Part shown: positions 22,865-40,062 of the stretch, piece after piece | Layout: each line of letters begins with the position of its first letter | Position numbering within the stretch: position 1 is the first letter of the stretch | From: Oscillospiraceae bacterium | GTDB lineage: Bacteria > Bacillota > Clostridia > Oscillospirales > UBA644 | NCBI GenBank assembly: GCA_015067385.1 | Contig: SVMP01000001.1 | Coordinates: 1 to 58,912, forward strand | Reading direction: 5' to 3' | DNA: 58,912 nucleotides | Made by a program: the position numbers and the translations under genes | Notes under the pieces: model-generated | The model's database searches: none | Seen by the model: the letters and a program-made list of their open reading frames with translations, nothing else | What the model was told of the DNA's origin: nothing

Positions 22865-22953
22865 AAAAGCACAACAGGATGGGCGGTGTATCCATCATCT
22901 CAGGTACTTCAAAGAAGTGTGTCGGGAACCTTTTTCGACCTCAATTGTGCTTA
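22816..22953 (-). ncRNA. candidate structured RNA (about 135 nt): stand-alone sRNA or riboswitch-like leader
   Basis: Has its own promoter (22959-22987), a closing helix AAGCACAA/TTGTGCTT around three short hairpins, an intrinsic terminator and an alternative antiterminator pairing. No convincing ORF or RBS. Confidence 0.35.
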
Positions 22954-23096: not shown

Positions 23097-23125
23097 TTGA
23101 CAAAAAGTGATTAGATGTGTATAAT
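23097..23125 (+). promoter_or_regulatory. consensus sigma-A promoter for the AT-rich four-gene cassette
   Basis: TTGACA (23097-23102), 17 nt, TATAAT (23120-23125) preceded by TGTG (extended -10). It lies inside the track ORF starting at 23115, which argues for the 23166 start. Confidence 0.6.
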
Positions 23126-23165
23126 ATCAGTGTGGACGAAAACAATAGAAAGGTTGATATTCTAT

Positions 23166-23657
23166 ATGAACAAGCAAGAAATATTTAACGGGTTATGGAC
23201 TATTACAAAAGAAAAGCATAATGCTTGTAAAGAGGATGCGTCATTAGTAGATAAACATCATCCTACGGAACGAGGAGCTTTGCAACTAAAGGTCGGTATT
23301 TATAATGTTGCTGTTGCCGCCGGGCTCATCTCAGGAATAGATCGGGCAATCGAACTGATGAGCGAGAGATTTAAGAATTTAATACAGCATTTTCCAGACC
23401 TTGCTGACTATTATTACACGTTGCCTGATGATCAAAAAGAACTCATGGAGATTTCGCTCTACCCCGAAGTTTTTATGAGAGTCAACTTCTATAATACATA
23501 CAATAACGATCTTGAACAAGCCGAGAAGGATGGAGATCCGCAAACGATCTTTAAGGCAAGAATCAAAAAAGAAGTACTCGACGATATTTTGAATATGTGG
23601 CGAGACTTCCGCGTTCAAAACGAATTGTTTGCTTTCGCTTTTGAAAAGGAGTGTTAA
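23166..23657 (+). CDS. hypothetical protein (163 aa, helical, no recognised domain)
   Basis: ATG at 23166 follows GAAAGG and lies downstream of the promoter. AT-rich codon usage differs from the flanking genes. Confidence 0.55.
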   Translation: MNKQEIFNGLWTITKEKHNACKEDASLVDKHHPTERGALQLKVGIYNVAVAAGLISGIDRAIELMSERFKNLIQHFPDLADYYYTLPDDQKELMEISLYPEVFMRVNFYNTYNNDLEQAEKDGDPQTIFKARIKKEVLDDILNMWRDFRVQNELFAFAFEKEC

Positions 23658-23660
23658 TTA

Positions 23661-24194
23661 ATGAACGATTATTCAATTCACGTATTAAACGGAAAAGTGA
23701 TCGGAAATTCTGTTTTCTATCTTTTAGCCGATGATTGTTTTCGCAAAGAGTGCAGAAGACTTCATGATTTTACGAATAATCTTGATAAAATGCCTGCAGA
23801 GAAGAAGAAAAACATTGCAGAATATAAATGTGCCAAATACCGCTATGCAGCTGTATCCTTAATTCACGGTATTATTTATAATAATAACGAATGCCGGACA
23901 AAGTTCAACCTTGAAAAATATCATTATTTGATACAGCCTTTTGATGAAATGTTCAAAGAGCATTCTGAATATTTGGCTTTGTATGAATCTGCCTCTGCGG
24001 ATGAAAAACCTGATTATAGTTTGTATTATATGGCGCTGGTGTTTACGGAAAGAGAGCTTTCGAATCTCAATGTTAAGAAACAGAATGCAAACGATTGGGA
24101 AAAAGTTGAACTTGAAGAACGTATCGGTGGATTACAATTTGCAAAAGAGTGTCTTAACGATGCCTGGCAGAAGAGAAAGGGTGAAGTACAGTGA
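23661..24194 (+). CDS. hypothetical protein (177 aa), possible distant paralogue of the preceding gene
   Basis: Starts 3 nt after the previous stop. Weak local similarity to the upstream product: VAVAAGLISGI vs YAAVSLIHGI, and LIQHFPDL vs LIQPFDEM. Confidence 0.55.
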   Translation: MNDYSIHVLNGKVIGNSVFYLLADDCFRKECRRLHDFTNNLDKMPAEKKKNIAEYKCAKYRYAAVSLIHGIIYNNNECRTKFNLEKYHYLIQPFDEMFKEHSEYLALYESASADEKPDYSLYYMALVFTERELSNLNVKKQNANDWEKVELEERIGGLQFAKECLNDAWQKRKGEVQ

Positions 24195-24724
24195 AAGAAA
24201 AGCTTGAACTTTTAAAGTTGCTTGCTGATGAAACCCGTCTTGATATTCTCAACCTTCTTTTAAAAGAGGATTCATACGTTGAAAAAATTGCATGTGAACT
24301 ATCACTGACACCTGCCACCATTTGTTATCATCTGAAAAAAATGGAAGCAGCGGGGATTGTTAACTGTTCCCGTTCACAATTCTACATTATCTATTCTCTG
24401 AACCGTGAGATTTTTGAAAAACCACTTTTGGAATTGATAAAAAAAGATAAAGTAATTATAGATACAGAAGAAAAATATAAAAAAGAGGTCATTTCAAACT
24501 TTTTCAAATACGGCAGATTGACGCAAATTCCCACTCAAAGAAAAAAGCGTGAGATCGTTCTTTCTGAAATACTTAAACAGTTTGATTTTGACCGTATGTA
24601 TGATGAAAAAGAAGTCAACGAGATCATTTTGCATTATCATGATGATTTTTGTACAATTCGACGTGAAATGATTGCATTCGGTATGATGTCACGTAATTAT
24701 GAAAAATATAAACGAATAAAATGA
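24191..24724 (+). CDS. ArsR-type winged-HTH regulator with DUF2087-like C-terminal domain
   Basis: LADETRLDILNLL......VEKIA..L.LTPATICYHLKKMEAAGIV is an ArsR/SmtB HTH. The C-terminal half resembles DUF2087. 4-nt overlap with the upstream gene. Confidence 0.75.
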   Translation: MKEKLELLKLLADETRLDILNLLLKEDSYVEKIACELSLTPATICYHLKKMEAAGIVNCSRSQFYIIYSLNREIFEKPLLELIKKDKVIIDTEEKYKKEVISNFFKYGRLTQIPTQRKKREIVLSEILKQFDFDRMYDEKEVNEIILHYHDDFCTIRREMIAFGMMSRNYEKYKRIK

Positions 24725-28384: not shown

Positions 28385-29350
28385 TTATTTTTCTTTGATC
28401 GCTATTAGCAGATCAAGTTGCGAAGTTTCGTCGTTTCTGTCGGGAGAATTATAATAGTAAACATAATTCAGATGCTCTTCCAAAAGTCCGCAACTGCAGC
28501 CGTTTCGGTCTGAAAGATTCATTTCGTATTTGTCACTTTCTGCTACCCATCTGACGAGCCACTCCCACTCTTCGAAATTACCCATAGTTATCGTGTGCGC
28601 CGCATAAAGACCGCCTTCGAAATATTTTTTCGTTAACGGTTCTGCTATCTCCATATCGTCTGGAACAGTTATCCATCGTTCGTAGCCGTGGTTGCCGTTT
28701 TCATCGTCAGCATTCGAGCCGTAATGTCTGGCGGCAGGGTATGCGTTAAATAAATTAACGCTTTCAGCCCAACGGTCGATCACTCCGCCCGTGTATTCTT
28801 CCGGATTGTCGCAAACCGCAGTCACGCTCGCAACCGTCGCAGGCGGCAGATACAGAATTCGAATATCTCTGTCGGTGAGTTTATTGACTTTTTCGCTTGC
28901 GCGGTTCAGCTCTTCAAGATTTTTTTCTTCTTTAAAGTTGATTTTCGTTACGGTAAGCGAATCAACAATATCCATCAGATTCTCGTCATCGGGGAGCATG
29001 AATTTCGTGTCATCGATCTGCAGTTTATTCAGAAAAGATTTTATAATGCTTCTGATCGTCGAAAGCGCCGTTATTTCCCCATCTATTTCAACGAGGTTTT
29101 CTTCAAAAATATCTATCGCAGTCTTCGCGCTGTCGCTTTTTAATATGTCTGCGATCTGTTTGAGGGGAATACGGAGTTTACGTAAAATTATTATCTGCTG
29201 AAGTGTCCGGAGCGTTTCTTCGTCGTAGATCCTGTATGAATTTTCTTCATCGCGTACAGGGCAGATCAGCCCGAGCTGTTCGTAATAACGGAGAGTCCTT
29301 GCCGAAATATTGTATTTCTTTGAAACTTTGCTTATTGACTGCAATTCCAT
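28385..29350 (-). CDS. MerR family transcriptional regulator with C-terminal effector-binding (GyrI-like) domain
   Basis: The N-terminus ISKVSKKYNISARTLRYYEQLGLI is a MerR HTH. This is followed by a coiled-coil linker and an approximately 150-aa ligand-binding-type domain. Confidence 0.82.
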   Translation of the reverse strand: MELQSISKVSKKYNISARTLRYYEQLGLICPVRDEENSYRIYDEETLRTLQQIIILRKLRIPLKQIADILKSDSAKTAIDIFEENLVEIDGEITALSTIRSIIKSFLNKLQIDDTKFMLPDDENLMDIVDSLTVTKINFKEEKNLEELNRASEKVNKLTDRDIRILYLPPATVASVTAVCDNPEEYTGGVIDRWAESVNLFNAYPAARHYGSNADDENGNHGYERWITVPDDMEIAEPLTKKYFEGGLYAAHTITMGNFEEWEWLVRWVAESDKYEMNLSDRNGCSCGLLEEHLNYVYYYNSPDRNDETSQLDLLIAIKEK

Positions 29351-29379
29351 TTTTGAGCTCCTTTTTATTTGATGCTCTT

Positions 29380-29410
29380 ATTATAAAGTATGACGCGATG
29401 TTAATGTCAA
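29380..29410 (-). promoter_or_regulatory. putative MerR-type promoter with 19-bp spacer
   Basis: Minus strand: TTGACA (29410-29405), 19 nt, TATAAT (29385-29380). An over-long spacer is the hallmark of MerR-controlled promoters. Confidence 0.4.
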
Positions 29411-29521
29411 GTACTTTAATAATTAGTTGCTTCTTTTGTTAAAAACAAAGATAAATCAATTTATCTGGTCTTTTATTGAATCCCCAATTAGTAATTGATC
29501 ACATTAAAATTGTTCACTAAC

Positions 29522-30109
29522 TCACATTAAAATGTTCGTTAAAAAGAAGATAACAATTGCCTGCATCACGATCATAAGCGGTATGCCGACCGTGAAATAA
29601 TCCTTTTGAGTCTTGTGTCTGAAAATATACATGCCTAAAAGTCCGCCCACAGCTCCGCCGATAAACGAAAGTCCGAGCAGGGTCACGATCTTTATTCTTG
29701 AACGGTTCTTTATCGCCGCAAGCTTGTCTATGCCGAAAACGATAAATGTTATAAGATTGATTATACCCCAATATATCGGGATAAAGCTGAAATTTTTAAA
29801 GAATGTTAAAAAATCAAACGTGATGTTCTCGCCTAAAAATCCCTTTATCATCAAAAACAGCAGTATCTGTATAACGAAAACGCATATTATCAGAACTCTC
29901 GACATCACATTTCGCTTTTCTATTTTTCTGTTAAACAGCAAAAGCGATAACAAAACACCGACCGAGCCGCCTAATATTGAAAAAACAGTCAACGCTCCGT
30001 CTATCTGCTTGTCCGCCGTATGTGCATAAAGCCAGGCGTTGATCGACGATAAAATAAATCCGAGCACGTTAATTATTATCAGATAATATTCAAAATGGCT
30101 AAGCTCCAT
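29522..30109 (-). CDS. DUF1294 domain membrane protein
   Basis: The C-terminal GIDKLAAIKNRSRI.....LGLSFIGGAVGGLLGMYIFRHKTQK is the DUF1294 signature. The start at 30109 (MELSHFEYY) is preferred over the extended track ORF. Confidence 0.75.
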   Translation of the reverse strand: MELSHFEYYLIIINVLGFILSSINAWLYAHTADKQIDGALTVFSILGGSVGVLLSLLLFNRKIEKRNVMSRVLIICVFVIQILLFLMIKGFLGENITFDFLTFFKNFSFIPIYWGIINLITFIVFGIDKLAAIKNRSRIKIVTLLGLSFIGGAVGGLLGMYIFRHKTQKDYFTVGIPLMIVMQAIVIFFLTNILM

Positions 30110-30248
30110 ATTGTTTTGCCTCATTCGGAAAATTTTTTCTATTATAACATACTGCGAAAAATTTATCAAGTGCCGAAAATATAAAATGCTCCGTTTTTTG
30201 CGGAGCAAGTGAGGAAATTTATTTTATTATGGATAATAAACATTGAAG

Positions 30249-30284
30249 AAAAATAAAAGGACACCGAATTTGGGTGTCCTTTTT
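30249..30284 (-). terminator. rho-independent terminator after the lipoprotein gene
   Basis: Stem GGACACC (30259-30265) / GGGTGTCC (30072+200 region, 30072 not meant; plus coordinates 30273-30279), flanked by an A-run upstream and TTTTT downstream. Confidence 0.55.
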
Positions 30285-30395
30285 CTGCCTTAAATTGGTA
30301 TATAGGTAAATATTGAGGTAAAAACGAACAAAAGATCAACGATTCTTAATAATGTGTTTGTAGGTATATTTGTTTGATTACCGAATTAGACAACA

Positions 30396-30887
30396 TTAAT
30401 TAGCGGGAACAAAAGTTCCTGAAACAGATAAAACATTTATTCTTACATTCTGGTTATTATGATCTCCGAAAACAATATTAGCGATTAGAGAATGTGTTTC
30501 TTCCTTGCTACCATGTGCCGGAATTTTTATTGTTGTAGTTAAATATCCGTCATTTTCAGAATAGGCAGGATCTGAAGAAGATACATCCCACTCTTTTGTT
30601 AAAGCCACTTGCAAAGTAATAGAAGCATTATAAAAACTTCCCGGTACAGCTGGATCTATATTTATGGTGAAATCGGAGTAGCCAAACGTAATACCTATTT
30701 TCTGTTGTCGTTCTATTTTCCCATATTGTCCACTAATAATCAGATATTTCCTTATGTTGTCCTTAGTTAATGTTATTTCAGTCTGTTCGGGAGTCTGTTC
30801 TGGTAATGTTTTTTCAGACTGTTCACAGGCAGCAAGACATACCGATATTAATAAAATAATTGTAAAAATAGATAAGATTTTCTTCAT
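30396..30887 (-). CDS. hypothetical lipoprotein
   Basis: Signal peptide MKKILSIFTIILLISVCLAAC with lipobox L-A-A-C. The ATG at 30887 lies 9 nt after AAGGGGA. No recognisable domain. Confidence 0.6.
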   Translation of the reverse strand: MKKILSIFTIILLISVCLAACEQSEKTLPEQTPEQTEITLTKDNIRKYLIISGQYGKIERQQKIGITFGYSDFTINIDPAVPGSFYNASITLQVALTKEWDVSSSDPAYSENDGYLTTTIKIPAHGSKEETHSLIANIVFGDHNNQNVRINVLSVSGTFVPAN

Positions 30888-30909
30888 AATCAAAATTCCC
30901 CTTCATAAA

Positions 30910-31125
30910 TTAAACTGCTTTTTTTAAACATACTGTTTTTTCTTTGATTTCAATCTGATATCCATATTTTTTTGCTTCTTTCGCAAGTGCGGATTTGTTT
31001 TTTAGATAGTAATAATCTTTAGGTAATGCCTTACCGACACTTTTTTCGTACTGACTTTCAGTTAGTGAAAATTCTTGACTAGCTTCGAATAAGGGTATTA
31101 TTTTTTCAAAGTTCAATTTAGCCAT
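30910..31125 (-). CDS. hypothetical small protein (71 aa)
   Basis: ORF with an AGAGGAGAAG RBS. Divergent from the XRE gene, an arrangement reminiscent of phage/ICE regulatory switches. Confidence 0.5.
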   Translation of the reverse strand: MAKLNFEKIIPLFEASQEFSLTESQYEKSVGKALPKDYYYLKNKSALAKEAKKYGYQIEIKEKTVCLKKAV

Positions 31126-31249
31126 ATCTTCTTCTCCTCTCTATGTGATGTATACATTATATAACGTAAATGTCTATTTGTCAAGGGTTTTTTAATATAT
31201 AATTTTTACATAATATAATGTATGAGTTGTATGATGTATGGAGGATATA

Positions 31250-31453
31250 ATGAAGCTACGTATACTTGATATTTTAGAGAAAAAAGGAAAAACAAAATAT
31301 TGGTTATACATCCAATTAGGTTTAAGTTATCAAAATTTCAATAAAATGGTCAATAATCAAACCAACGGAATTAAATTTGAAAATTTGCAAGCACTTTGTG
31401 ATATTTTGGAATGTACTCCAAACGATTTGTTTGATAAGTATCACGAGAAATAA
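31250..31453 (+). CDS. XRE family helix-turn-helix regulator (67 aa)
   Basis: MKLRILDILEKKGKTKYWLYIQLGLSYQNFNKMVNNQT..IKFENL..LCDILECTPNDLF is an HTH_26/Cro-like domain. ATG follows GGAGGA. Confidence 0.78.
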   Translation: MKLRILDILEKKGKTKYWLYIQLGLSYQNFNKMVNNQTNGIKFENLQALCDILECTPNDLFDKYHEK

Positions 31454-31471
31454 AAAACTCTTCTATAGACT

Positions 31472-31502
31472 AAATCGACAGGTTTTGACCTGTCGATTTT
31501 TG
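31472..31502 (+). terminator. rho-independent terminator after XRE gene
   Basis: Stem ATCGACAGG (31474-31482) / CCTGTCGAT (31489-31497), loop TTTTGA, then TTTTT. Confidence 0.7.
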
Positions 31503-31631
31503 TGTACTGATTATAAAAAGATATTCGACGTTTTTCTGATCGGATTTAAAACGTCACATAGTATTTTTGTCAAACATTAAAGTTCGGCACCATCATAATT
31601 TAAATGGTTATTGGCATTACGATACATCAGT

Positions 31632-31651
31632 ACTGAAAACGACAAGTTTCT
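31632..31651. repeat. 20-bp direct repeat, copy 1 (ACTGAAAACGACAAGTTTCT)
   Basis: Identical to 31902-31921, which forms the 5' half (on the plus strand) of the tRNA-Ser terminator hairpin. Confidence 0.85.
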
Positions 31652-31697
31652 GTCAGCAGAGTACATATTCATAAATTCCGACTTTGAATTAATCTTT

Positions 31698-31904
31698 AGT
31701 GATATTCCGTCTTCGACGGAGTGATATTTTTTTGCCGTGCATAATTTATTGCCGTGCATAATTTTTGCAGTGCAAAAAAGTGATATTAAAGCCTGCGGCT
31801 TTAGTGATATTATATTCGCCTCTTAACTGCCGAAGGCAATATCTCTCGGCGTCAGCCGAATATCACTGCGAAGCAATATCACTCGCCGTAAGGCGAATAT
31901 AACT
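31698..31904. repeat. convergent arrays of the 9-mer AGTGATATT interleaved with short GC hairpins
   Basis: Plus-strand copies at 31698, 31720, 31779 and 31803. Reverse-complement copies (AATATCACT, some with 1 mismatch) at 31838, 31859, 31875 and 31896. Spacers such as CCGTCTTCGACGG, AAAGCCTGCGGCTTT, CGGCGTCAGCCG, GCGAAGC and CGCCGTAAGGCG are each self-complementary. Confidence 0.85.
31732..31778. repeat. tandem repeat TTGCCGTGCATAATTT x2 plus a degenerate third unit
   Basis: Units at 31732-31747 and 31749-31764 are identical. The third unit is TTGCAGTGCAAAAA (31765-31778). Embedded between 9-mer copies 2 and 3. Confidence 0.8.
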
Positions 31905-31921
31905 GAAAACGACAAGTTTCT
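31902..31921. repeat. 20-bp direct repeat, copy 2
   Basis: ACTGAAAACGACAAGTTTCT, identical to 31632-31651. Overlaps the tRNA-Ser terminator stem. Confidence 0.85.
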
Positions 31922-31940
31922 TTTGAAACTTGTCGTTTTC
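31905..31940 (-). terminator. hairpin terminator immediately 3' of tRNA-Ser
   Basis: Perfect 16-bp inverted repeat GAAAACGACAAGTTTC / GAAACTTGTCGTTTTC with TTTT loop, starting 1 nt after the tRNA CCA end. Confidence 0.6.
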
Positions 31941-31941
31941 C

Positions 31942-32029
31942 TGGCGGAGAGTGTGGGATTCGAACCCACGTGGCTTTTGGCCTAACGGTTTTCAAGACCG
32001 CCTCGTTATGACCGCTTCGATAACTCTCC
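31942..32029 (-). tRNA. tRNA-Ser (anticodon UGA), CCA encoded
   Basis: Reverse complement GGAGAGTTATCGAAGCGGTCATAACGAGGCGGTCTTGAAAACCGTTAGGCCAAAAGCCACGTGGGTTCGAATCCCACACTCTCCGCCA. It has a 7-bp acceptor stem, anticodon loop CTTGAAA, a long variable arm and a GGGTTCGAATCCC T-arm. Confidence 0.93.
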
Positions 32030-32207: not shown

Positions 32208-33602
32208 TCATTTTAACACGTTGCCTTCCTCGGTGTCGTACATTATTTTTATATCTTCCTCAACGCCCGTATGCGCATTGATGTAAACATACACCGTGGC
32301 TTCTCCGTATATGTCCTTGCCCGAAAATTCGTAGCAGAGTTTTTCGTGTTCTTCAACACCGTTCGTCGAAATAAGGCAAAGTCGGCTGTTTTCGGGGGTT
32401 ATCGCCGTTACCTTTTTTGCCGCCGCCTCTTCTGTCAGAGAGGGGATGAGGGTTCGTTTGGCAGAGTGCGAAATTAAATATTTGCTTGCGTCAAGCCCGA
32501 TTATCTGTCCGTTATCGAGAGCTATCAATAATGAGATCTTGTCGGGATAGCAGTAAACGTTGTTTTTTACATAAACATAGTCCGCTTTCAGCACGTTCCC
32601 TTCCTCACTGTAAAAAACGCATTCCATGTTTGACATCTTTATTTTTGACAGAAATTCCGAGCCTTTTTTTATTGCTTCGTCAAATGTTAATTCGGCATCC
32701 GATATCTCTCTCATTTTTGAAAAGAAAAGAGGGTAGCCCTGCCTCATCGTCACGGCAATATATTTATCGTCTCCGTCAAAAGTTACGCATTTAATATCCC
32801 CGACCGTCAGATCTTCGCCCTGCGTCAATGCCGACGGCTGACAGTTCAGAATATACGCCGCACGGTTTTTCGCTTCTTCATCGGTTATCGGGTCTTTGTC
32901 CGCAAGAAAAACGCTTTTGGGGTTCGATAAATGGCTCGAATAAAGTCCGTCATAATTAAGTTCGGGAAAATCAAGCCCGTTTTCCATGTTAATTAACGGA
33001 TTTTCGCTGACAAACGTCTCTTCGCCGCCGTCAGTTGATGCTGTAACGTCAGATTGCCCATCCGTGTTCTGTCTGTCATCGAGTGAAATAAAGTCGAGAA
33101 GATCGTCATATTTCAGATTTTCGGAGTTTACTCTGTATTGAAGCTCCGTCATCTGCTGAGAAAGCGAGCGTGCCTGTTCGTAAAGTTTTTTAACAGTCTG
33201 CTTGTCCTCCTCGTCCTGCTCTCCGCCGTTCATCAACTCTTTTGCGAGCGAAAGAACGTATTCGCCCGACTGATTTAAAAATTTCGGTATCTGCTGAAGA
33301 TTTAATTCGTCTGTCGGCAGTTCTTCAAGGCTCGTTTTTGCTGCACCTGCACGTTTCCAGACAGATGCCGCAAGATTCATCGCCTGATACGGTGAAGATG
33401 CGTACATGCTCTTCTGCAGATCGTTGCTTATCCCGTCAAGCTCCTCCGCAAGCTCCGAAAAGCTTTGTTGATACGAATATGCCGCGATCTGCTTTATGCT
33501 CGACGTGCCGTTGTTCGCTTTAATGATCATTCCTGCCGCCACGATCACCGCCGCACCGAGAAAACACAGCATCACCGTCAATACACTTTTTTTTATATAC
33601 AT
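32208..33602 (-). CDS. ypeB: spore germination protein YpeB
   Basis: 464 aa. Has an N-terminal TM, then IAAYSYQQSFSELAEELDGISNDLQKSMYASSPYQ...SVWK.A..AK..L..LP and C-terminal PepSY-like repeats, as in YpeB. Confidence 0.82.
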   Translation of the reverse strand: MYIKKSVLTVMLCFLGAAVIVAAGMIIKANNGTSSIKQIAAYSYQQSFSELAEELDGISNDLQKSMYASSPYQAMNLAASVWKRAGAAKTSLEELPTDELNLQQIPKFLNQSGEYVLSLAKELMNGGEQDEEDKQTVKKLYEQARSLSQQMTELQYRVNSENLKYDDLLDFISLDDRQNTDGQSDVTASTDGGEETFVSENPLINMENGLDFPELNYDGLYSSHLSNPKSVFLADKDPITDEEAKNRAAYILNCQPSALTQGEDLTVGDIKCVTFDGDDKYIAVTMRQGYPLFFSKMREISDAELTFDEAIKKGSEFLSKIKMSNMECVFYSEEGNVLKADYVYVKNNVYCYPDKISLLIALDNGQIIGLDASKYLISHSAKRTLIPSLTEEAAAKKVTAITPENSRLCLISTNGVEEHEKLCYEFSGKDIYGEATVYVYINAHTGVEEDIKIMYDTEEGNVLK

Positions 33603-33607
33603 AAAAA

Positions 33608-33647
33608 CCTCCGATAAAAATCCTTTTTAAGATATTTTTACCGGAGG
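33608..33647 (-). terminator. 14-bp hairpin between rubrerythrin and ypeB whose 3' arm contains the ypeB Shine-Dalgarno
   Basis: Minus-sense CCTCCGGTAAAAAT (33647-33634) pairs with ATTTTTATCGGAGG (33621-33608), with one G-U pair. TTTTT and the ypeB ATG follow immediately. Confidence 0.5.
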
Positions 33648-33672
33648 TCGTTTTATTTATTCATTTGTCAGA

Positions 33673-34209
33673 TCAATAATTTTCTGCTTTTACTTCGAAA
33701 TAAGCCTGGGGATGTTTGCAAACAGGGCAGAGGAGAGGTGCTTCATCGCCGGAATGGATATGACCGCAGTTAGCGCATTTCCAGAGAGTGGGAGCATCTT
33801 TCTTGAATACCTTGCCGTCCTGAATGTTTTTAAGAAGCTTGAGGTATCTTTCTTCATGTTCTTTTTCAACTCTTGCAACACCTTCAAACATGATCGCAAT
33901 ATCGTCAAAGCCTTCTTCTCTTGCTGTCTTTGCAAATTCAGCGTACATTTCGGTCCATTCGTAGTTTTCGCCTTCAGCCGCATTTATAAGATTCTTGTCG
34001 GTGGAAGCGATACCTCCGTGGAGAAGTTTGTACCAGAGCTTTGCGTGTTCTTTTTCATTGCCTGCCGTCTCTGCAAAAATGTTGGAGATCTGAACATATC
34101 CGTCCTTTTTTGCCTGAGATGAAAAGTACATATATTTTATGCTTGCCTGAGATTCGCCCGCGAAAGCGGCTTCAAGATTTTTTTCTGTCTGACTGCCTTT
34201 GAGTTCCAT
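33673..34209 (-). CDS. rbr: rubrerythrin
   Basis: Ferritin-like diiron domain (E..A...Y, EKEHA, E..H) plus C-terminal rubredoxin-like CANCGH....CPVCKH. The ATG at 34209 lies 7 nt after GGAGGA. Confidence 0.9.
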
Positions 34210-34268
34210 AATTTTATCCTCCATGGTGTTAAATTGATTCTTTTCTATTTTTACCCGACAGCGGAAAA

Positions 34269-35795
34269 TTATTCTTCATCGGGAATAAATCTGTGAGTGC
34301 TTACACCGTCTTTTTCTTCTGCTTTTGCATAGTGTACGGTTCCTTCAAATCCGAGTTTTTCCTGAAGATCGGAAAGATGCTTCTTCATGTCGGGAAGATG
34401 AGTAACGGAGATTACTCTCGCCTTGTAAAGCGCCGCAATGGCTATAAATTCACTGAGCGCAATTGCCGCCTCGTCGAAAGATGTTGACTGATAAACTTCG
34501 TTGAAAAGAAGCATATCGTTCGGCTTGAGCGTATCGAGGAATCCCGAAACGGTCTCAACTTCTTCTTCAAAACGTCCCTGACCGATGTCAAGAGCCGTAA
34601 AGTATGCGTAAACGCCTGCAACGGGGGTGATTATTGCTTCTGTACACGGTACGGGCAACGCCGCCTGACCGAGAAGCTGGATTATGCCGACCGCACGTAA
34701 AAATACGGTCTTACCTGCATTGTTCTTACCTGTAATGATGTACGCCGCACAGTCTTTGTCGAATATAGCATCGTTCGGAACGAGAACATCGCCCGGACGT
34801 TCGTTTTTGTTTTTCTGAGCCTGCTTGAGCGAGAACCAGAGGTCGTAAATGTTTTTACATTCGAATCTGTTGCCTTCCGTGCAGAATTCGGGGGTACACA
34901 TCGGAAGACCGAGACGCTCGTATGTTCTTTCGAGAATAGCCGCAAAATCATAGAAATAGAATCCGTCACGGATCTTGTCAAACGGCTTTTTAAGCTGATA
35001 TGTTACAGACTGCATGTATGTTACAAGCTTTATCATGCTTCTTTCCGCAAGAGACTGAAGCTGTTGATCCGATTCAACGTCAAAACCGATGGAAATTACC
35101 ATCTTATCTTTGTCTTTCATCGGGGGAGATTTCTGTTCGTAGCTGTACGGATCAGACGAGAGCTTGAACATTTCGCAGTCGCACATTCTGACGTATTTAT
35201 CAAGCTTTGTTAAAATAACAAATGATGTGTTGAGGTTCAACGATTCTGCAAGCTCGGAAGCCATCGCTTTAAGCTCTTCAAATGCGGGGTTTTCAATCTG
35301 CGCTTTAACAAAGTCACGCATCTGGATCATAAACTGCGAACGTACATCTTTTTTGCTGAACGTTCTGTTGTACTGCTCATAGATCTCAAGGATCTTGAGA
35401 ATACAGTCAGCCAAAGTCTGAACGGTAAAGATGGACGATTCTCTGTCGGATGTCGTCGATCTGCCGCCTGTCGTTGTAATAACGGAAGCTGCGGATGTCT
35501 TAACGATCTTAAGAGCATCCTCAAGCTTGAGATTAAGCTTTTCTATAAGCTCAAATTCGTGAAGCAGAGAATTGTTTCTCTTGAAATCTTCGAGAATTTC
35601 TTTTCTCCAGATAAGATTTTCAATATCCTGTTCGGGATGGCTGAGGAGTGCGAAAACCTTTTTCTGAAGGATTATGTCTACCGTAACGCCGTTTACGACT
35701 TCGTCAAGAAGAAGGCTCTTCATGGACATTTCAAGCTGTTTTGACGATTCTGTTTTTGACGGGTTTTTGTAAAGAAGGTCAAATTCGGGATACAT
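34269..35795 (-). CDS. MutS-related ATPase, domain III/V only (paralogue 2)
   Basis: 508 aa. Walker [18 protein letters not shown], Walker-B-like [12 protein letters not shown] and VTHL motif. No mismatch-binding domain I and no Smr/nuclease domain. The start overlaps the upstream stop (TAATG). Confidence 0.8.
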
Positions 35796-37360
35796 TATTT
35801 GGTTTCCTCCTTCTTCTTTTTGAGACGTTCGAGCATTTGCTCAACAGTCATGTCATATTTGGAAAGTATATCTTTTGCGAACGAAGAGTTCTGAGTGCTG
35901 AGAGGTACGATCTTGTAAAGTCTCTTACCTGTCTTTTCATCGTTAAGCGCTGTAAGAACGCCTGCACTGTGCGGTCTTGTTTTCGTTTCTGTCGCATAGT
36001 CCTTCAAGCTGTGAAGATGTGTTACGAAAAGACCCGAAACATCGTGTTCGAGAACCTTGTCAACAAGCTCGACGGAAAGTTTGTATGCAATGTCTGCTTT
36101 TGTTGATGAATATGTTTCGTTGAAAAGCGCAAGGCTCTGTCCGTCGGTGATGTCTCTGAATATTCTTTCAACACGACCCTGCTCTTCGACAAGTCTACCG
36201 GAGTTGTCGTTATATTCTTCAACGGGGAAGTGTGTAAACATTCTCTTCATTATCTTTATCTTCGCTTTTCTTGCGGGAACATGACCGCATGCCTGGAAGA
36301 AGAGCTGACAGAGACCTACAGCGGAAAGGAATATCGTTTTACCGCCTGCGTTAGGTCCGGTAATGAAGAAGAAAGAGCTGTCGCCGTAAACATAGTCGTT
36401 GTAAATGACCTGATCGGGCGCCAATCCTCTTTTAACAAGGAAAAGGCTGTAGAAATCCGCAATATCGGTCTTTTCCGCAACCTCTGCTTTTATGCTTCGG
36501 AAGCCTTTCTGCGCGATCTCTCTGAAAATACGGGAGAAACCGATAACAGCGTCAAGCTTCTTAACGAGATCGAGCCATGCAGTGTCGAAAACATCCTTGT
36601 AGCTTTCATGGAAAGCATCGATGTTTTTGAATATATCATAGTAAAGATCGTAGAGCGCCTGGAAAACGGGTCTTGAAAATTCTCTCGGCTGATGGATTGC
36701 AGGTGCGTACGCTTCGCTTGTGTCAAGTCCGAGACGGCCTGTTATATCCGCAAGCTGTTTCATAAGAGAAACCTCTTCGGTCTTGGGAATAATGCTGTTT
36801 TCGATGTTCTGACCGCGTGAGAAATATCTGTTGAGTCTGATCTCACCGATGGTTTCAAGGCTTTCACGAAGACCGCCCATATCCTTGGTTATCTTGTTGA
36901 GCTCGGCTTTCTTTTCTGCGGAACATGTGTCTGTTAAGATCTTTACGGTAGCAGCCGAAAGTGTCTTTTTATCGATAGCTTCGGCGCCTTTCATGAATTT
37001 TTCGTATATCTCCGTAAATCTTTCAATAATAAGGAACGTTTTCATCGTAACCATTTCGGGAACGCTCTTGAACATCTTCAGCTCGTACAAAAGAGAAAGC
37101 TCCCAAAGGTCGTTTCTTAATTCGCAGAAAAGATCGAAAAGACAGTCGTTTTTCGTCATGTCTTCGATTATGTCCGCACGGTATGCGATTATTTCGGGAT
37201 CACTGCAAAATTGATTGATTATTTCAAGAGTGGCTTCTTCCTGTTCTTTGGACGAGAGGAAAGCGTTGAGCAACTCTTCAAGCTGCATATCAACCGTAAC
37301 GCAATAGTCAAGCGGCTTTGCATCCGGCTGAGCTTTTATCGGGTCGAAAAATAACTTCAT
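35795..37360 (-). CDS. MutS-related ATPase, domain III/V only (paralogue 1)
   Basis: 521 aa. Walker A ITGPNAGGKTIFLSAVG, LALFNETYSSTK and VTHLHSL. The helical N-terminal half has a MutS-core-like YRADIIEDM segment. The start lies 3 nt after the upstream stop. Confidence 0.8.
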   Translation of the reverse strand: MKLFFDPIKAQPDAKPLDYCVTVDMQLEELLNAFLSSKEQEEATLEIINQFCSDPEIIAYRADIIEDMTKNDCLFDLFCELRNDLWELSLLYELKMFKSVPEMVTMKTFLIIERFTEIYEKFMKGAEAIDKKTLSAATVKILTDTCSAEKKAELNKITKDMGGLRESLETIGEIRLNRYFSRGQNIENSIIPKTEEVSLMKQLADITGRLGLDTSEAYAPAIHQPREFSRPVFQALYDLYYDIFKNIDAFHESYKDVFDTAWLDLVKKLDAVIGFSRIFREIAQKGFRSIKAEVAEKTDIADFYSLFLVKRGLAPDQVIYNDYVYGDSSFFFITGPNAGGKTIFLSAVGLCQLFFQACGHVPARKAKIKIMKRMFTHFPVEEYNDNSGRLVEEQGRVERIFRDITDGQSLALFNETYSSTKADIAYKLSVELVDKVLEHDVSGLFVTHLHSLKDYATETKTRPHSAGVLTALNDEKTGKRLYKIVPLSTQNSSFAKDILSKYDMTVEQMLERLKKKKEETK

Positions 37361-37363
37361 CGG

Positions 37364-38098
37364 TTAAAATCCTTTCTTCATCTCGACATAATGTTTTTTT
37401 CTCATCGCGCGACGTGCCGTTCTGAAAATTCGGCGGGCTTCTTTTCCTGAAACTGCGCATTTTTCAGGCTTCGATGGGAAGAAGTGGTTTGCTATTACTA
37501 TGCCGTAATGTATGGTGTCACCGTCGATAAGATCAATGTTGCTGACAGTTCTGACTTCTTTGAGAGAAGGATTGAACATCACGACGGGTACGCAGTCTAT
37601 CTGACTGTCTTTTAATGCGTAGTTGATCGACGCCGCATATTTAACAAGACCGACAGGTGGCTTTTTCTTTCTTTTATTGACTGTGAGCTTATGGAACGCC
37701 ATTGTTAACTGTCCGATAATACCTTCGTTTTCGGTCGGTGCGAGACCTCTGTGGTCAGAGACGTGCCATGTTGACGGCGAGGTGAACATAACGGTTGCTT
37801 TTACTTTTCTGTAGCTTTTGAGCTTGATTATGTAAAGTTTGTTACCTGAAAGAAGCATGTAGTCGGGTTTATGATTCCAAAAATGCGGAATGAAAAATCC
37901 GGGAAGTCCTACCTTTGCAAACTTGGCATTGCAGAAAACACACCGTACAAAAAGTATTGCTCTTACCACAATATATCTCAATAATGGAAAGATTATGAAG
38001 CATATCGCAGCAGTTATGATCGAAACAACGATTATGAAAACTATTGCCGCTTCAAAAAATGACATCGCCAACGGCATTGTGTGAACTTCGGGGGACAT
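37364..38098 (-). CDS. membrane-anchored protein with possible degenerate NERD/PD-(D/E)xK-like domain
   Basis: 244 aa. Has an N-terminal hydrophobic helix or helices. The segment HKPDYMLLSGNKLYIIKLKSYRKVKATV resembles the NERD core (D..hh....hhhhExK.y.G) but has K where the acidic residue is expected. First gene of the three-gene operon. Confidence 0.5.
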   Translation of the reverse strand: MSPEVHTMPLAMSFFEAAIVFIIVVSIITAAICFIIFPLLRYIVVRAILFVRCVFCNAKFAKVGLPGFFIPHFWNHKPDYMLLSGNKLYIIKLKSYRKVKATVMFTSPSTWHVSDHRGLAPTENEGIIGQLTMAFHKLTVNKRKKKPPVGLVKYAASINYALKDSQIDCVPVVMFNPSLKEVRTVSNIDLIDGDTIHYGIVIANHFFPSKPEKCAVSGKEARRIFRTARRAMRKKHYVEMKKGF

Positions 38099-38265
38099 TT
38101 TATTTTTGATCTCCGTTCTGAGTCTTTTTATTAATTATAGCATATCTTGGTTGATATTTCAAGAATTATTTTATGTTATTTATAACTAAAAAATCGTGTT
38201 TGCAATAACAGAAAAACACTATTCTGCACAAATATTGTAAAGTGAAGATATTTTAATGTTTTGCA

Positions 38266-38294
38266 TTGAAATTTTATTTGATTTATGTTATAAT
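38266..38294 (+). promoter_or_regulatory. putative sigma-A promoter for the ABC exporter pair
   Basis: TTGAAA (38266-38271), 17 nt, TATAAT (38289-38294) preceded by TGT (extended -10). It lies inside the 5' end of the track ORF. Confidence 0.5.
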
Positions 38295-38349
38295 GTCTGC
38301 AACGATATATATTCGTATTTATAATGAACCGAAAGGCAGTCGTTTTGAT

Positions 38350-40062
38350 TTGATTAAACTACTTCGTTATCTGAAAAAACATTGGCTCGAAAGTATTTTC
38401 GGACCGCTGTTTAAGTTTCTTGAGGCATGCTTTGAATTAACAGTTCCTGTAATAATGGCTGATATGATCGATATTGGTATAAAAAATGCAGATAAAGAGT
38501 ATGTCCTTCGCTCCGGGGCAATAGTTGTCGGGCTCGGACTTCTGGGCTTCGTCTGCGCTCTGACCGCACAGTTCTTTGCCGCAAAAGCATCAATGGCTTT
38601 CGGAACCGCCCTGCGAAACGATCTTTATAAGCACATCTCCTCATTTTCCGCAACGGAGCTTGACCGATTCGGCACGTCCACTCTCATTACAAGGCTCGGT
38701 GCGGACGTTATTCAGACACAGTCGGGTGTAAATCTTGTCCTTCGTCTTCTTCTTCGCTCCCCGTTTATCGTTGTGGGTGCGGTTGCGGCTTCATTTATGA
38801 TAGACGTTAAGCTTTCGCTCATTTTCCTTGTCGCTGTTATCATTCTTTCTTTAACAGTCTGGCTTATTATGAGCAGGCTTCTCCCTCTCTATAAAAAAAC
38901 ACGCAAAAACCTCGACAGAATAACGGTTAAAACACGTGAAAACCTCACCGGTGCACGTGTCGTCCGTTCTTTTTCCGCAGGAGAGACCGAACGTTCGGAG
39001 TTTAACACTGCCGCCGAGGATCTTTACTCCTCACAGATAATCTCAGGCAAGATCTCGGCTCTTTTAAATCCGCTTTCTTTCTCCGTTATCAACCTTTCTG
39101 CCGCTGTGTTAATGTGGTTCGGAGCTCTTTCCGTCGATTCCAGTGCGATAACTCAAGGTCAGATCATCGCTCTTTTAAATTACATGACACAGATCCTCAT
39201 CGCTCTTCTCGCTCTCGCAAATCTTGTCGTCATGATAACAAAATCCACTGCGTCCGCTTCAAGAATAAACGAGATATTTGACGAACAGCCGTCTGTCGTT
39301 GAAGGCGAAAAAGAGCTTTGTTCCGTTGAGAACATCTGCTTTGAAAATGTTTCTTACAAATATCCCGGAGCTTCTGCGTACGCTGTTGACGGACTTTCGT
39401 TCAGCATCAAAAAGGGCATGACTGTGGGCATAGTCGGTGGTACAGGCTCAGGCAAATCAACGCTTGTTTCTTTGCTTCTCCGTCAGGTCGATGCGTCCGA
39501 AGGAAAGGTTCTTTTCAACGGTCAGCCTATCTCCGAATATACTTTCGCAAGTCTTCATTCCGCTGTTGCCGCTGTCCCTCAGAAACCCGCACTCTTTTCC
39601 GGAACAGTCAGACAAAATCTTTTATGGCGTAACGAAAACGCTTCCGACGAGGAGCTTTTTGCCGCTCTCGATATTGCTCAGGCGTCCGATTTTATCGCAG
39701 GAGATCTTGACCGACCTGTTGCCAAAGCAGGCTCGAATCTTTCCGGCGGTCAGCGTCAGCGTCTTACGATCGCCCGTGCGCTTGTCGGTCCTTCCGATGT
39801 CCTTGTTCTTGACGACAGCGCATCTGCTCTCGACTATGCGACCGATGCAAAATTACGTAAGGCTATAGCTTCCTTGCCCGATAACAAAACGGTCATCATC
39901 GTTTCTCAGCGTATTTTTGCGGTCAAAAAAGCAGACGTTATTCTCGTGCTCGACGAAGGTAAGATCGTCGGATCGGGAACCCACGATTCGTTGATGAGAA
40001 CCTGCCCTGTTTATGCAGAGATCTGCGCATCTCAGACCCAGGAGGCGCAAAATGAAAAATAA
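38350..40062 (+). CDS. ABC transporter permease/ATP-binding protein (type I exporter half-transporter)
   Basis: Six-TM domain plus an NBD with GGTGSGKST, LSGGQRQRL and LVLDD. The start is probably the TTG at 38350 (..IKLLRYLKKHW, GAAAGG RBS), because the predicted promoter lies downstream of the track start at 38266. Confidence 0.85.
   Translation: MIKLLRYLKKHWLESIFGPLFKFLEACFELTVPVIMADMIDIGIKNADKEYVLRSGAIVVGLGLLGFVCALTAQFFAAKASMAFGTALRNDLYKHISSFSATELDRFGTSTLITRLGADVIQTQSGVNLVLRLLLRSPFIVVGAVAASFMIDVKLSLIFLVAVIILSLTVWLIMSRLLPLYKKTRKNLDRITVKTRENLTGARVVRSFSAGETERSEFNTAAEDLYSSQIISGKISALLNPLSFSVINLSAAVLMWFGALSVDSSAITQGQIIALLNYMTQILIALLALANLVVMITKSTASASRINEIFDEQPSVVEGEKELCSVENICFENVSYKYPGASAYAVDGLSFSIKKGMTVGIVGGTGSGKSTLVSLLLRQVDASEGKVLFNGQPISEYTFASLHSAVAAVPQKPALFSGTVRQNLLWRNENASDEELFAALDIAQASDFIAGDLDRPVAKAGSNLSGGQRQRLTIARALVGPSDVLVLDDSASALDYATDAKLRKAIASLPDNKTVIIVSQRIFAVKKADVILVLDEGKIVGSGTHDSLMRTCPVYAEICASQTQEAQNEK

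Follow-up and report, generated by a model that had tools for sequence, protein, structure and literature searches.

What do two MutS-type ATPases, reduced to the helical lever/core and the ATPase domain, do when they are produced together with a small membrane protein? The question is raised by a three-gene locus at positions 34269–38098 on the minus strand of contig SVMP01000001.1 (assembly GCA_015067385.1), a 58,912-nucleotide (nt) stretch of DNA from an Oscillospiraceae bacterium that is referred to here as the window. Pairs of proteins that retain only domain V of MutS have appeared in genome surveys since 2007 and, to our knowledge, have no established function. The only prior functional leads on such pairs are one recombination assay and an old note of mutS-like genes behind the crcB riboswitch. 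The three genes in the window form a unit in which the membrane protein is a new, strictly co-inherited third component beside the ATPase pair. The pair type is already in the literature (MutS4-like), whereas the trio as such appears to be undescribed. This third component provides the first handle on where the pair may act, namely at the membrane, and on a possible presenter of its substrate.

The trio and its distribution

Gene 1 (37364–38098, 244 residues), gene 2 (35795–37360, 521 residues) and gene 3 (34269–35795, 508 residues) are all transcribed from the minus strand, with genes 2 and 3 encoding the first (A-position) and second (B-position) MutS-like subunits, respectively. The open reading frames (ORFs) and the reading of both junctions confirm the close coupling claimed in an earlier note made from the sequence (hereafter the original prediction). 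A 3-nt gap separates genes 1 and 2 (...TTT TAA CCG ATG...), and genes 2 and 3 overlap by 1 nt (...AAA TAATG TAT...). The three genes are real and their packing is beyond chance. All three are under strong purifying selection, with ratios of nonsynonymous to synonymous substitution (dN/dS) of 0.04–0.10 against four orthologous loci, those of gene 1 lying at 0.04–0.07.

Co-conservation of the trio across genomes had been set as a test beforehand, and it holds in every locus with a long enough contig, gene order and tight spacing being kept in 25/25 of the related loci fetched. Every one of these loci belongs to an uncultured member of the Clostridia, and the carriers form a small gut and rumen clade. 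Orthologues of gene 2 and then gene 3 trail gene 1 on the same strand even where gene 1 identity has fallen to 19–30%. In most of these loci the junction between genes 2 and 3 is an overlap or gap of 1–4 nt; locus L001 has a 17-nt overlap. Gene 3 is the best conserved member of the trio, gene 2 comes next and gene 1 is the least conserved. MutS_V genes also follow P0136, a remote relative of gene 1 (E 3e-8).

The gene 1 family comprises 17–20 clusters in a word-indexed search of 5.8 billion proteins and 15 clusters at 50% identity in an exhaustive HMMER profile search of 1.84 billion representative proteins. It is present in 13 of 185,579 species genomes scanned, all of them metagenome-assembled and assigned to uncultured Clostridia, Oscillospiraceae, Ruminococcaceae or Eubacteriales; several derive from ruminant guts. 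No match to gene 1 is found in Pfam (at E ≤ 1), NCBIfam, PADLOC or PHROGs and, judged by these searches, it is a new, very small and unannotated family.

A sigma-A-type (sigma-70-type) promoter lies upstream of gene 1 at 38134–38162 on the minus strand. It consists of TTGAAA, a 17-nt spacer and the extended −10 element TGcTATAAT, and it matches 11 of 12 consensus positions in addition to the TG extension. The ribosome-binding site read from the sequence, GGAG (38111–38114, minus strand), stands 12 nt ahead of the ATG, and the 5′ leader of the trio is about 30 nt long. Across eight species, the aligned upstream regions keep TTGAAw-17-TGnTATAAT and the ribosome-binding block ACGGAGA unchanged amid diverged DNA. 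The class of the promoter suggests constitutive expression.

The ATPase pair and its membrane partner

Pfam MutS_V is the sole significant domain in gene 2 (E 2e-14) and gene 3 (E 2e-15), with scores of 54.5 and 57.6 bits against a gathering cutoff of 30.2. The two proteins are paralogous over their full length, as had been predicted (hhalign probability 99.9%, 459 aligned columns), and have in common an N-terminal [YW]RxxIxxD motif. Neither has a Pfam match to MutS_I or MutS_II at E ≤ 1, the core helices starting each protein, and neither matches Pfam MutS_III or MutS_IV. Matches to Smr and KOW are likewise absent from both proteins, which stop 30–60 residues past the ATPase domain. Scores against the NCBIfam models are 37–56 bits for mutS1 (cutoffs 480–642) and 44–59 bits for mutS2 (cutoff 400).

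The AlphaFold2 model of gene 2 (predicted local distance difference test score, pLDDT, 81) is all-helical to about residue 285 and continues as an ATP-binding cassette (ABC) ATPase. Foldseek aligns it with MutS, MSH2, MSH3 and MutS2 over 500–600 columns at E ~1e-16 and TM-scores of 0.50–0.56, so that gene 2 is modelled as a MutS lever/core fold followed by the ATPase; gene 3 is given the same fold because it is a full-length paralogue. The nearest solved structures by sequence are MutS2 proteins, which match in the ATPase domain only.

The nucleotide-binding motifs of both subunits are intact and altered in the same way. Walker A reads GPNAGGKT in gene 2 (residues 335–342, 36335–36358, minus strand) and GKNNAGKT in gene 3 (residues 356–363, 34707–34730, minus strand), each invariant among orthologues. 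The VTHL sequence (TH motif) is invariant in the orthologues of both genes, and these motif calls of the original prediction thus stand. What it had not noticed is that the Walker B motif, hhhhDE in canonical MutS, is hhhhNE in both subunits and in every orthologue. In gene 2 it ends F-N-E, with N414 in place of the canonical Asp (36116–36124, minus strand), and in gene 3 both N432 and E433 are invariant (34497–34502, minus strand). The S-T-F signature is similarly replaced by GR[L/F], again in both subunits and in every orthologue, whereas MutS1 and MutS2 controls in the same alignment carry DE and LST[FY]. The invariance of Walker A, the NE Walker B, GR[LF] and the TH motif in both subunits indicates that both ATP sites are under selection. 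The equivalent substitution in E. coli MutS, D693N, leaves an enzyme that keeps its ATPase activity but has lowered affinity for ATP and magnesium, a strongly magnesium-dependent turnover and no ligand stimulation (PMC2857095). By analogy with D693N, genes 2 and 3 may be expected to encode a slow, magnesium-sensitive switch rather than a dead enzyme.

Two features distinguish the subunits from each other or from the MutS plan. The original prediction held that the pair keeps domain V and a helical core while lacking domain I, any Smr module and the clamp insert. The lack of domain I and of Smr is borne out, but the clamp insert is not simply lacking. Gene 2 contains about 60 residues between the lever helices (residues 169–229, 36674–36856, minus strand; pLDDT 40–60), which include the motif NRxFSRGQNIENS with N177, R178, F180, N185, E187, N188 and S189 invariant. 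From the helix topology of the model, this insert appears to occupy the clamp position with a clade-specific element. In addition, gene 2 has a C-terminal helix-turn-helix-like tail (SSFAKDILSKYDMTVEQMLERL), and gene 3 does not, ending directly after its last strand. This asymmetry fits an obligate heterodimer. Both subunits are acidic (isoelectric point, pI, 4.9–5.7; net charge −8 to −21).

Gene 1 encodes a protein of opposite charge. Its membrane anchor, another feature correctly recognised at the outset, corresponds to residues 19–37 (37988–38044, minus strand), with a mean Kyte-Doolittle hydropathy of 3.24. The residues ahead of this segment carry a charge of −2, and the 25 residues behind it a charge of +5. 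Exactly one strongly hydrophobic N-terminal segment is found in 27/27 family members examined, always with a neutral or acidic N-terminal side and a net charge of +3 to +6 in the following 25 residues. This pattern predicts an N-out/C-in topology that would place the bulk of the protein in the cytoplasm. Gene 1 as a whole has a net charge of +21 and a pI of 10.0, and the family ranges from +14 to +25 at pI ~10, except for the L001 member (+9, pI 9.1), whose C terminus is extended by an acidic tail.

In the AlphaFold2 model of gene 1 (pLDDT 77.5), a long helix (residues 14–54) precedes an alpha/beta domain. The segment that the original prediction had likened to a NERD nuclease core, K77-P78-D79 ... 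K92 (37817–37870, minus strand), is modelled as a beta-hairpin with strands at 80–84 and 87–94. K77, P78 and K92 are invariant in the family, and D79 and D194 are nearly so. The likeness to NERD was not upheld: among 19 members of the family, none matches PF08378 or another Pfam model at thresholds as loose as E ≤ 10, and a search of the family profile against PDB sequences matched no solved structure. Structural comparison of the whole-protein model against the PDB places Hjc resolvases at the head of the list, but at E 0.27–1 and a probability of 0.47 or less. Against BFVD, an unnamed entry matches at E 0.011 and resolvase, VRR-NUC and PD-(D/E)XK entries at E 0.1–1, all of these being non-significant. 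The residues themselves do not support NERD-like catalysis either. Apart from D79, the catalytic positions are non-acidic: the (D/E) position of the PD-(D/E)XK pattern is taken by I90 or the invariant K92, and the preceding helix carries R41 and R46 and no conserved acid. A degenerate restriction-endonuclease-like fold is a possible description of the modelled domain and, with acidic metal ligands replaced by Ile, Lys and Arg, a role in binding is likelier than one in cutting.

Relatives of the ATPase pair

Adjacent MutS-V-only genes in which the stop codon of one overlaps the start of the next characterise the MutS4A/MutS4B subfamily (PMC2190696, Lin, Nei and Ma 2007; PMC5742357). The pair in the window resembles this type in having only the core and ATPase (MutSac) regions and in being adjacent paralogues with overlapping stop and start codons (TAATG in the window). 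A tblastn search of plasmids recovers further pairs, of about 510 residues per subunit and overlapping by 4 nt, from Klebsiella, Mycobacterium branderi, Rhodococcus, Burkholderia and Rubrobacter. Genes 2 and 3 have several motifs in common with these plasmid pairs, namely the NE Walker B, a G[KR][LF]x[DE]E signature (G-K-L in the plasmid pairs), FTHF and an N-terminal YRQxIxxD. The correspondence extends to position within the pair, in that the first plasmid subunit keeps a C-terminal helix-turn-helix-like tail, as gene 2 does, and the closest plasmid matches of gene 3 are second subunits. Identity within the ATPase domain is only 18–34%.

The relationship was also examined in a neighbour-joining tree computed from 190 columns of the ATPase domain with 300 bootstrap replicates, without the MutS4A/B reference sequences of Lin et al. 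(e.g. T. tengcongensis). Genes 2 and 3 lie outside the MutS1/MutS2 clade (bootstrap 98%). The plasmid A and B subunits form clades at 100% and 99%, and the gene 2 and gene 3 orthologues at 99% and 84%, respectively. Gene 3 groups with the B clade at 35%, and a grouping of gene 2 with the A clade is not recovered. The common hallmark motifs thus suggest that genes 2 and 3 belong to the same assemblage as MutS4A/MutS4B, and make them candidate members of MutS4A/B in the strict sense. The combination of Walker B Asn and G[KR][LF] provides a clear sequence definition of this assemblage, sets it apart from MutS1 and MutS2, and predicts altered handling of magnesium and ATP.

The plasmid pairs are accompanied by fluoride riboswitches. 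An Rfam scan finds RF01734 in 5/5 plasmid loci (L029–L033) at 42–57 bits against a gathering score of 34. In Burkholderia (L031, 4957–5018; gene start 5155) and in M. branderi (L030, 3776–3836; gene start 3869), a riboswitch immediately precedes the first of the MutS-like genes, and in Klebsiella (L029, 1753–1815) one heads an antiporter–universal stress protein–MutSA–MutSB operon. Further copies occur at 1425–1491 in L031, 3599–3665 in L032 and 10809–10900 in L033; the Rubrobacter riboswitch is on a neighbouring antiporter operon and that of Rhodococcus on neighbouring crcB genes. The pairs are surrounded by antiporters, universal stress proteins, P-type ATPases, a chloride channel (ClC), CrcB and enolase. 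The original prediction is extended by this link, by the MutS4A/MutS4B precedent and by the NE Walker B. The link itself has an antecedent, in that mutS was listed among the genes behind the crcB motif (Weinberg et al. 2010, PMC2864571), and the 2017 paper on mycobacterial MutS4 is silent on fluoride (PMC5742357).

Fluoride control of the trio itself was considered and rejected. A scan for RF01734 came back empty for 33500–38500 of the window (E ≤ 10) and for five further trio loci (E ≤ 1), and crcB and ClC-F genes are absent from the window and the trio loci.

Two kinds of variant were seen among the relatives. In three remote variants, an ORF of 529–549 residues encodes an extracytoplasmic function (ECF)-sigma-like protein (Sigma70_r2 and r4, with a long C-terminal extension) directly upstream of genes for a small membrane protein and MutS_V (L011, 4394–5983; L012, 4060–5649; L028, 4077–5726). 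Genes for a MobA relaxase and a serine recombinase lie beside the L028 group, whose MutS_V protein has Walker B in its canonical DE form. In several lineages, one MutS-like gene is divided between two ORFs (L011, 6660–8141; L032, 3964–5599; L031, 6687–8190), one covering roughly the helical N-terminal part and the other the ATPase part at the C terminus. The same division occurs in L011 and L012, which come from two independent metagenomes, and it represents either a real split or a recurrent frameshift.

Candidate roles, surroundings and known systems

The account that we favour, tentatively and without regarding it as probable, is that the trio forms a membrane-tethered, heterodimeric ATP switch or clamp with a basic, polyanion-binding partner. 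Genes 2 and 3 would pair obligately into an asymmetric heterodimer that has two ATP sites, both composite, and to which only gene 2 contributes a helix-turn-helix-like tail, and this heterodimer would act as a slow, magnesium-sensitive switch or clamp rather than as a fast motor. Gene 1 would anchor the acidic heterodimer (pI ~5) to the cytoplasmic side of the membrane. Along with domains I and IV, the ATPases would have lost a surface that binds polyanions, probably nucleic acid, and gene 1 would provide this surface in trans. Its domain, if it is indeed a degenerate restriction-endonuclease-like fold, would bind without cutting.

Several observations weigh against this account. The nuclease-fold likeness of gene 1 is non-significant, with best E values of 0.27 (PDB) and 0.011 (BFVD) and TM-scores of 0.38 or less (0.30 and 0.29 for the best PDB and BFVD matches), and sequence-level support for such a fold is absent from the Pfam and PDB sequence searches. 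Acidic lipids, or nothing more than the acidic ATPases themselves, could equally be what the basic domain binds. Two more remote gene 1-like proteins, P0137 and P0140, have no MutS_V gene directly downstream, and bootstrap support for a deep link between the trio ATPases and the A and B clades does not exceed 35%. Finally, fluoride riboswitches control those relatives of the pair that are understood best, and these relatives lie amid ion transporters rather than DNA genes, a setting that speaks against a role of the wider assemblage on nucleic acids.

This last point leads to the first of four alternatives, which are a stress-response remodeller, an active nuclease, phage defence and ribosome rescue in descending order of weight. 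As a remodeller, which has a modest chance of being correct, the NE-type pair would answer ionic or chemical stress by acting on a target other than nucleic acid, and gene 1 would merely localise the pair at the membrane, beside transporters. The pair might, for instance, sense Mg-nucleotide or Mg-fluoride complexes that have become trapped, or release them, or restore an inhibited enzyme to activity. The riboswitches that head or precede MutS4A-type genes on the Burkholderia, Mycobacterium and Klebsiella plasmids, together with the mutS genes behind the crcB motif, support this proposal, as do the antiporters, stress proteins and channels around the plasmid pairs and the common Walker B Asn, which is predicted to change magnesium handling (PMC2857095).

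A further point in favour of the remodeller comes from the gene downstream of the trio in its nearest relatives. Rubrerythrin is a peroxide-stress protein, and its gene (33673–34209, minus strand; Pfam Rubrerythrin and a rubredoxin-like domain) follows gene 3 after 59 nt in the window and after 23–62 nt overall in the eight nearest species (L013–L020 relatives). Given this short gap and the lack of a terminator-like site, which was sought between the two genes, rubrerythrin is probably a fourth cistron of the trio transcript, in the eight-species clade only; it is not at this position in the more distant trio lineages.

A non-DNA role also has a named precedent among MutS-type ATPases. KamC (NCBIfam NF052383), the MutS2-derived lysine 5,6-aminomutase reactivase ATPase, is a MutS-type protein of about 508 residues that NCBI annotates as an enzyme reactivase rather than a DNA repair protein. 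Its model gives a weak colinear match to gene 3 over residues 119–471. The likeness is generic, however, with scores of 43 and 54.8 bits against a cutoff of 300, and an identity of either subunit with KamC was rejected: the model scores a MutS2 protein far higher (190 bits), no lysine-fermentation (kam) genes are found among the flanking genes scanned, and literature searches on KamC and lysine fermentation returned nothing on a KamC reactivase. Also at odds with a stress remodeller are the absence of a fluoride riboswitch and of crcB or ClC-F genes near the trio, the 5′ untranslated region of only ~30 nt, and the placement of the trio ATPases in clades separate from the fluoride-linked A and B clades. 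A still broader generalisation, to which we give slightly less credence, is that the whole NE-type assemblage consists of ATP-gated clamps that act on non-DNA targets under ionic or chemical stress, and not in DNA repair, gene 1 being the first dedicated partner, a membrane-anchored, dead nuclease-fold adaptor. If so, gene 1 would mark the site at which the clamp acts, the inner face of the membrane.

In the second alternative, the trio serves DNA repair or recombination and gene 1 is a competent PD-(D/E)XK variant, with D79, K92 and a relocated acid such as D194, licensed by the MutS-like heterodimer. Combinations of MutS-family ATPases with nucleases occur repeatedly (MutS–MutL–MutH, MutS2–Smr, MutS7–HNH, MSH1–GIY-YIG). 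Resolvase and VRR-NUC types recur in the weak fold matches of gene 1, the three candidate residues are invariant or nearly so, and one paper reports more frequent homologous recombination in M. smegmatis that carries a mycobacterial MutS4 operon (PMC5742357). The canonical acidic positions are nevertheless I90/K92, with R41 and R46 instead of Glu on the preceding helix, and the fold matches are non-significant with no family match at the sequence level. In addition, a membrane-anchored nuclease acting on the chromosome would be unusual, and no DNA-metabolism genes occur in any flank examined. We consider an active nuclease improbable.

Defence against phages or plasmids, one of the readings that the original prediction had raised, would make the ATPase pair a sensor of foreign nucleic acid and the membrane protein its effector. 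An ABC-type ATPase pair with a small membrane protein of possible nuclease fold does resemble many defence systems, and P0046, a distant single MutS_V relative, adjoins a relaxase and a serine recombinase. The searches, on the other hand, speak against it. With PADLOC-DB 2.0, PADLOC gives no match for gene 1 and only P-loop-level noise for genes 2 and 3 (AbiLi, AriA and PDC-M38A; E 0.0016–0.011), PHROGs gives nothing for gene 1, and neither 2.9 million viral contigs nor 72,556 plasmids contain a relative of gene 1. In phage records, gene 1 has no match and gene 3 has only weak ones, in the ATPase domain.

The genomic setting also argues against a defence island. In the eight nearest species, the flanks contain the same genes as in the window in a synteny comparison. 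A divergently transcribed ABC exporter gene pair lies upstream, and downstream are rubrerythrin and then ypeB, the two neighbours named in the original prediction, with identities confirmed by Pfam on both sides. Synonymous sites across these species are saturated (synonymous divergence, dS, 0.9 to >2), and synteny that persists despite such saturation indicates vertical inheritance. Once gene 1 identity falls below about 65%, the flanks differ, and in distant lineages they include Rnf and TrmO, NTP-transferase and ParA, GlnA-III, glutamate dehydrogenase, NrdDG, purine biosynthesis, NifSU and SpoIIP. Apart from the neighbours of P0046, the flanks are all housekeeping and the conserved promoter is of the housekeeping type. 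Sequence comparison thus suggests a vertically inherited chromosomal module rather than a mobile island; the trio behaves as a chromosomal housekeeping or stress module, not as a phage-defence island, and a defence role is decidedly improbable. A sporulation role is disfavoured too, the conserved promoter being of sigma-A type and ypeB adjoining the trio only in the nearest species. One gene call in the upstream flank may need correction: the mechanical ORF of the first ABC exporter gene (38266–40062, plus strand) has a TTG start that coincides with a promoter-like site at 38266–38294, and the true start codon is probably further downstream.

Least credible of all is the speculative proposal of membrane-proximal ribosome rescue, in which a MutS2-like clamp without KOW and Smr is recruited by an RNA-binding anchor and splits translocon-stalled ribosomes: the nearest structures to the ATPase domain are MutS2 proteins, including B. 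subtilis MutS2 on collided ribosomes (7qv3), the length and layout equal those of the MutS2 core (7vuf, 488 residues) and gene 1 is strongly basic, but the trio has neither KOW nor Smr, its ATPases lie outside the MutS1/MutS2 clade and no conserved translation-related partner accompanies it.

Elsewhere in the window, a full-length skipping-rope RNA match (RF02924) lies at 22870–22949 on the minus strand, with 65 bits against a gathering score of 36.7. A Gut-1 RNA (RF01706, 58 bits) at 31834–32029, also on the minus strand, is directly beside tRNA-Ser(tga), and together they edge a stretch of low GC content at 29000–32000 (GC 0.32–0.37). This stretch contains small ORFs, including a helix-turn-helix-looking one and a DUF1294 protein, and may be the remnant of an integrated element. 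Three tandem ORFs of 177–180 residues occupy 23115–24724 on the plus strand, in a second low-GC stretch (GC 0.33–0.35).

Comparison with known systems shows where the trio resembles each of them and where it departs. The ATPases resemble canonical MutS and MSH proteins in their lever helices, in an ABC-type domain V that carries Walker A and the TH motif, and in a predicted dimeric plan whose ATP sites are composite, and MSH heterodimers are a precedent for asymmetric pairs. The trio ATPases differ in lacking domains I and II and in the replacement of the Walker B Asp and the STF signature. MutS2/RqcU (PDB 7vuf, 7qv3) provides the best sequence matches among solved structures and a Foldseek alignment that spans the whole length; it has the same order of domains, lever/core and then ATPase, and no mismatch-binding domain I. 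MutS2, however, is a homodimer with KOW/Smr and the DE and STF motifs, whereas the trio pair has neither domain, carries NE and GR[LF], and consists of diverged paralogues that probably form a heterodimer. Compared with NERD and PD-(D/E)XK nucleases, the beta-hairpin of gene 1 has a P-D ... K arrangement in which D79 is followed by 12 residues and then K92, a spacing that suits this fold, the acidic metal-binding positions are now Ile, Lys and Arg, and there is an N-terminal membrane anchor besides.

The plasmid pairs of the MutS4-like assemblage offer the most direct comparison. They have no gene 1 partner and are under, or beside, fluoride-riboswitch control, whereas the trio has a membrane partner and no riboswitch. 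The same type of ATPase pair is thus wired differently by lineage, to a riboswitch and transporters in one case and to a constitutive-type promoter and a membrane anchor in the other, and the function of the trio, if solved, would explain the fluoride riboswitches that stand over MutS-like genes.

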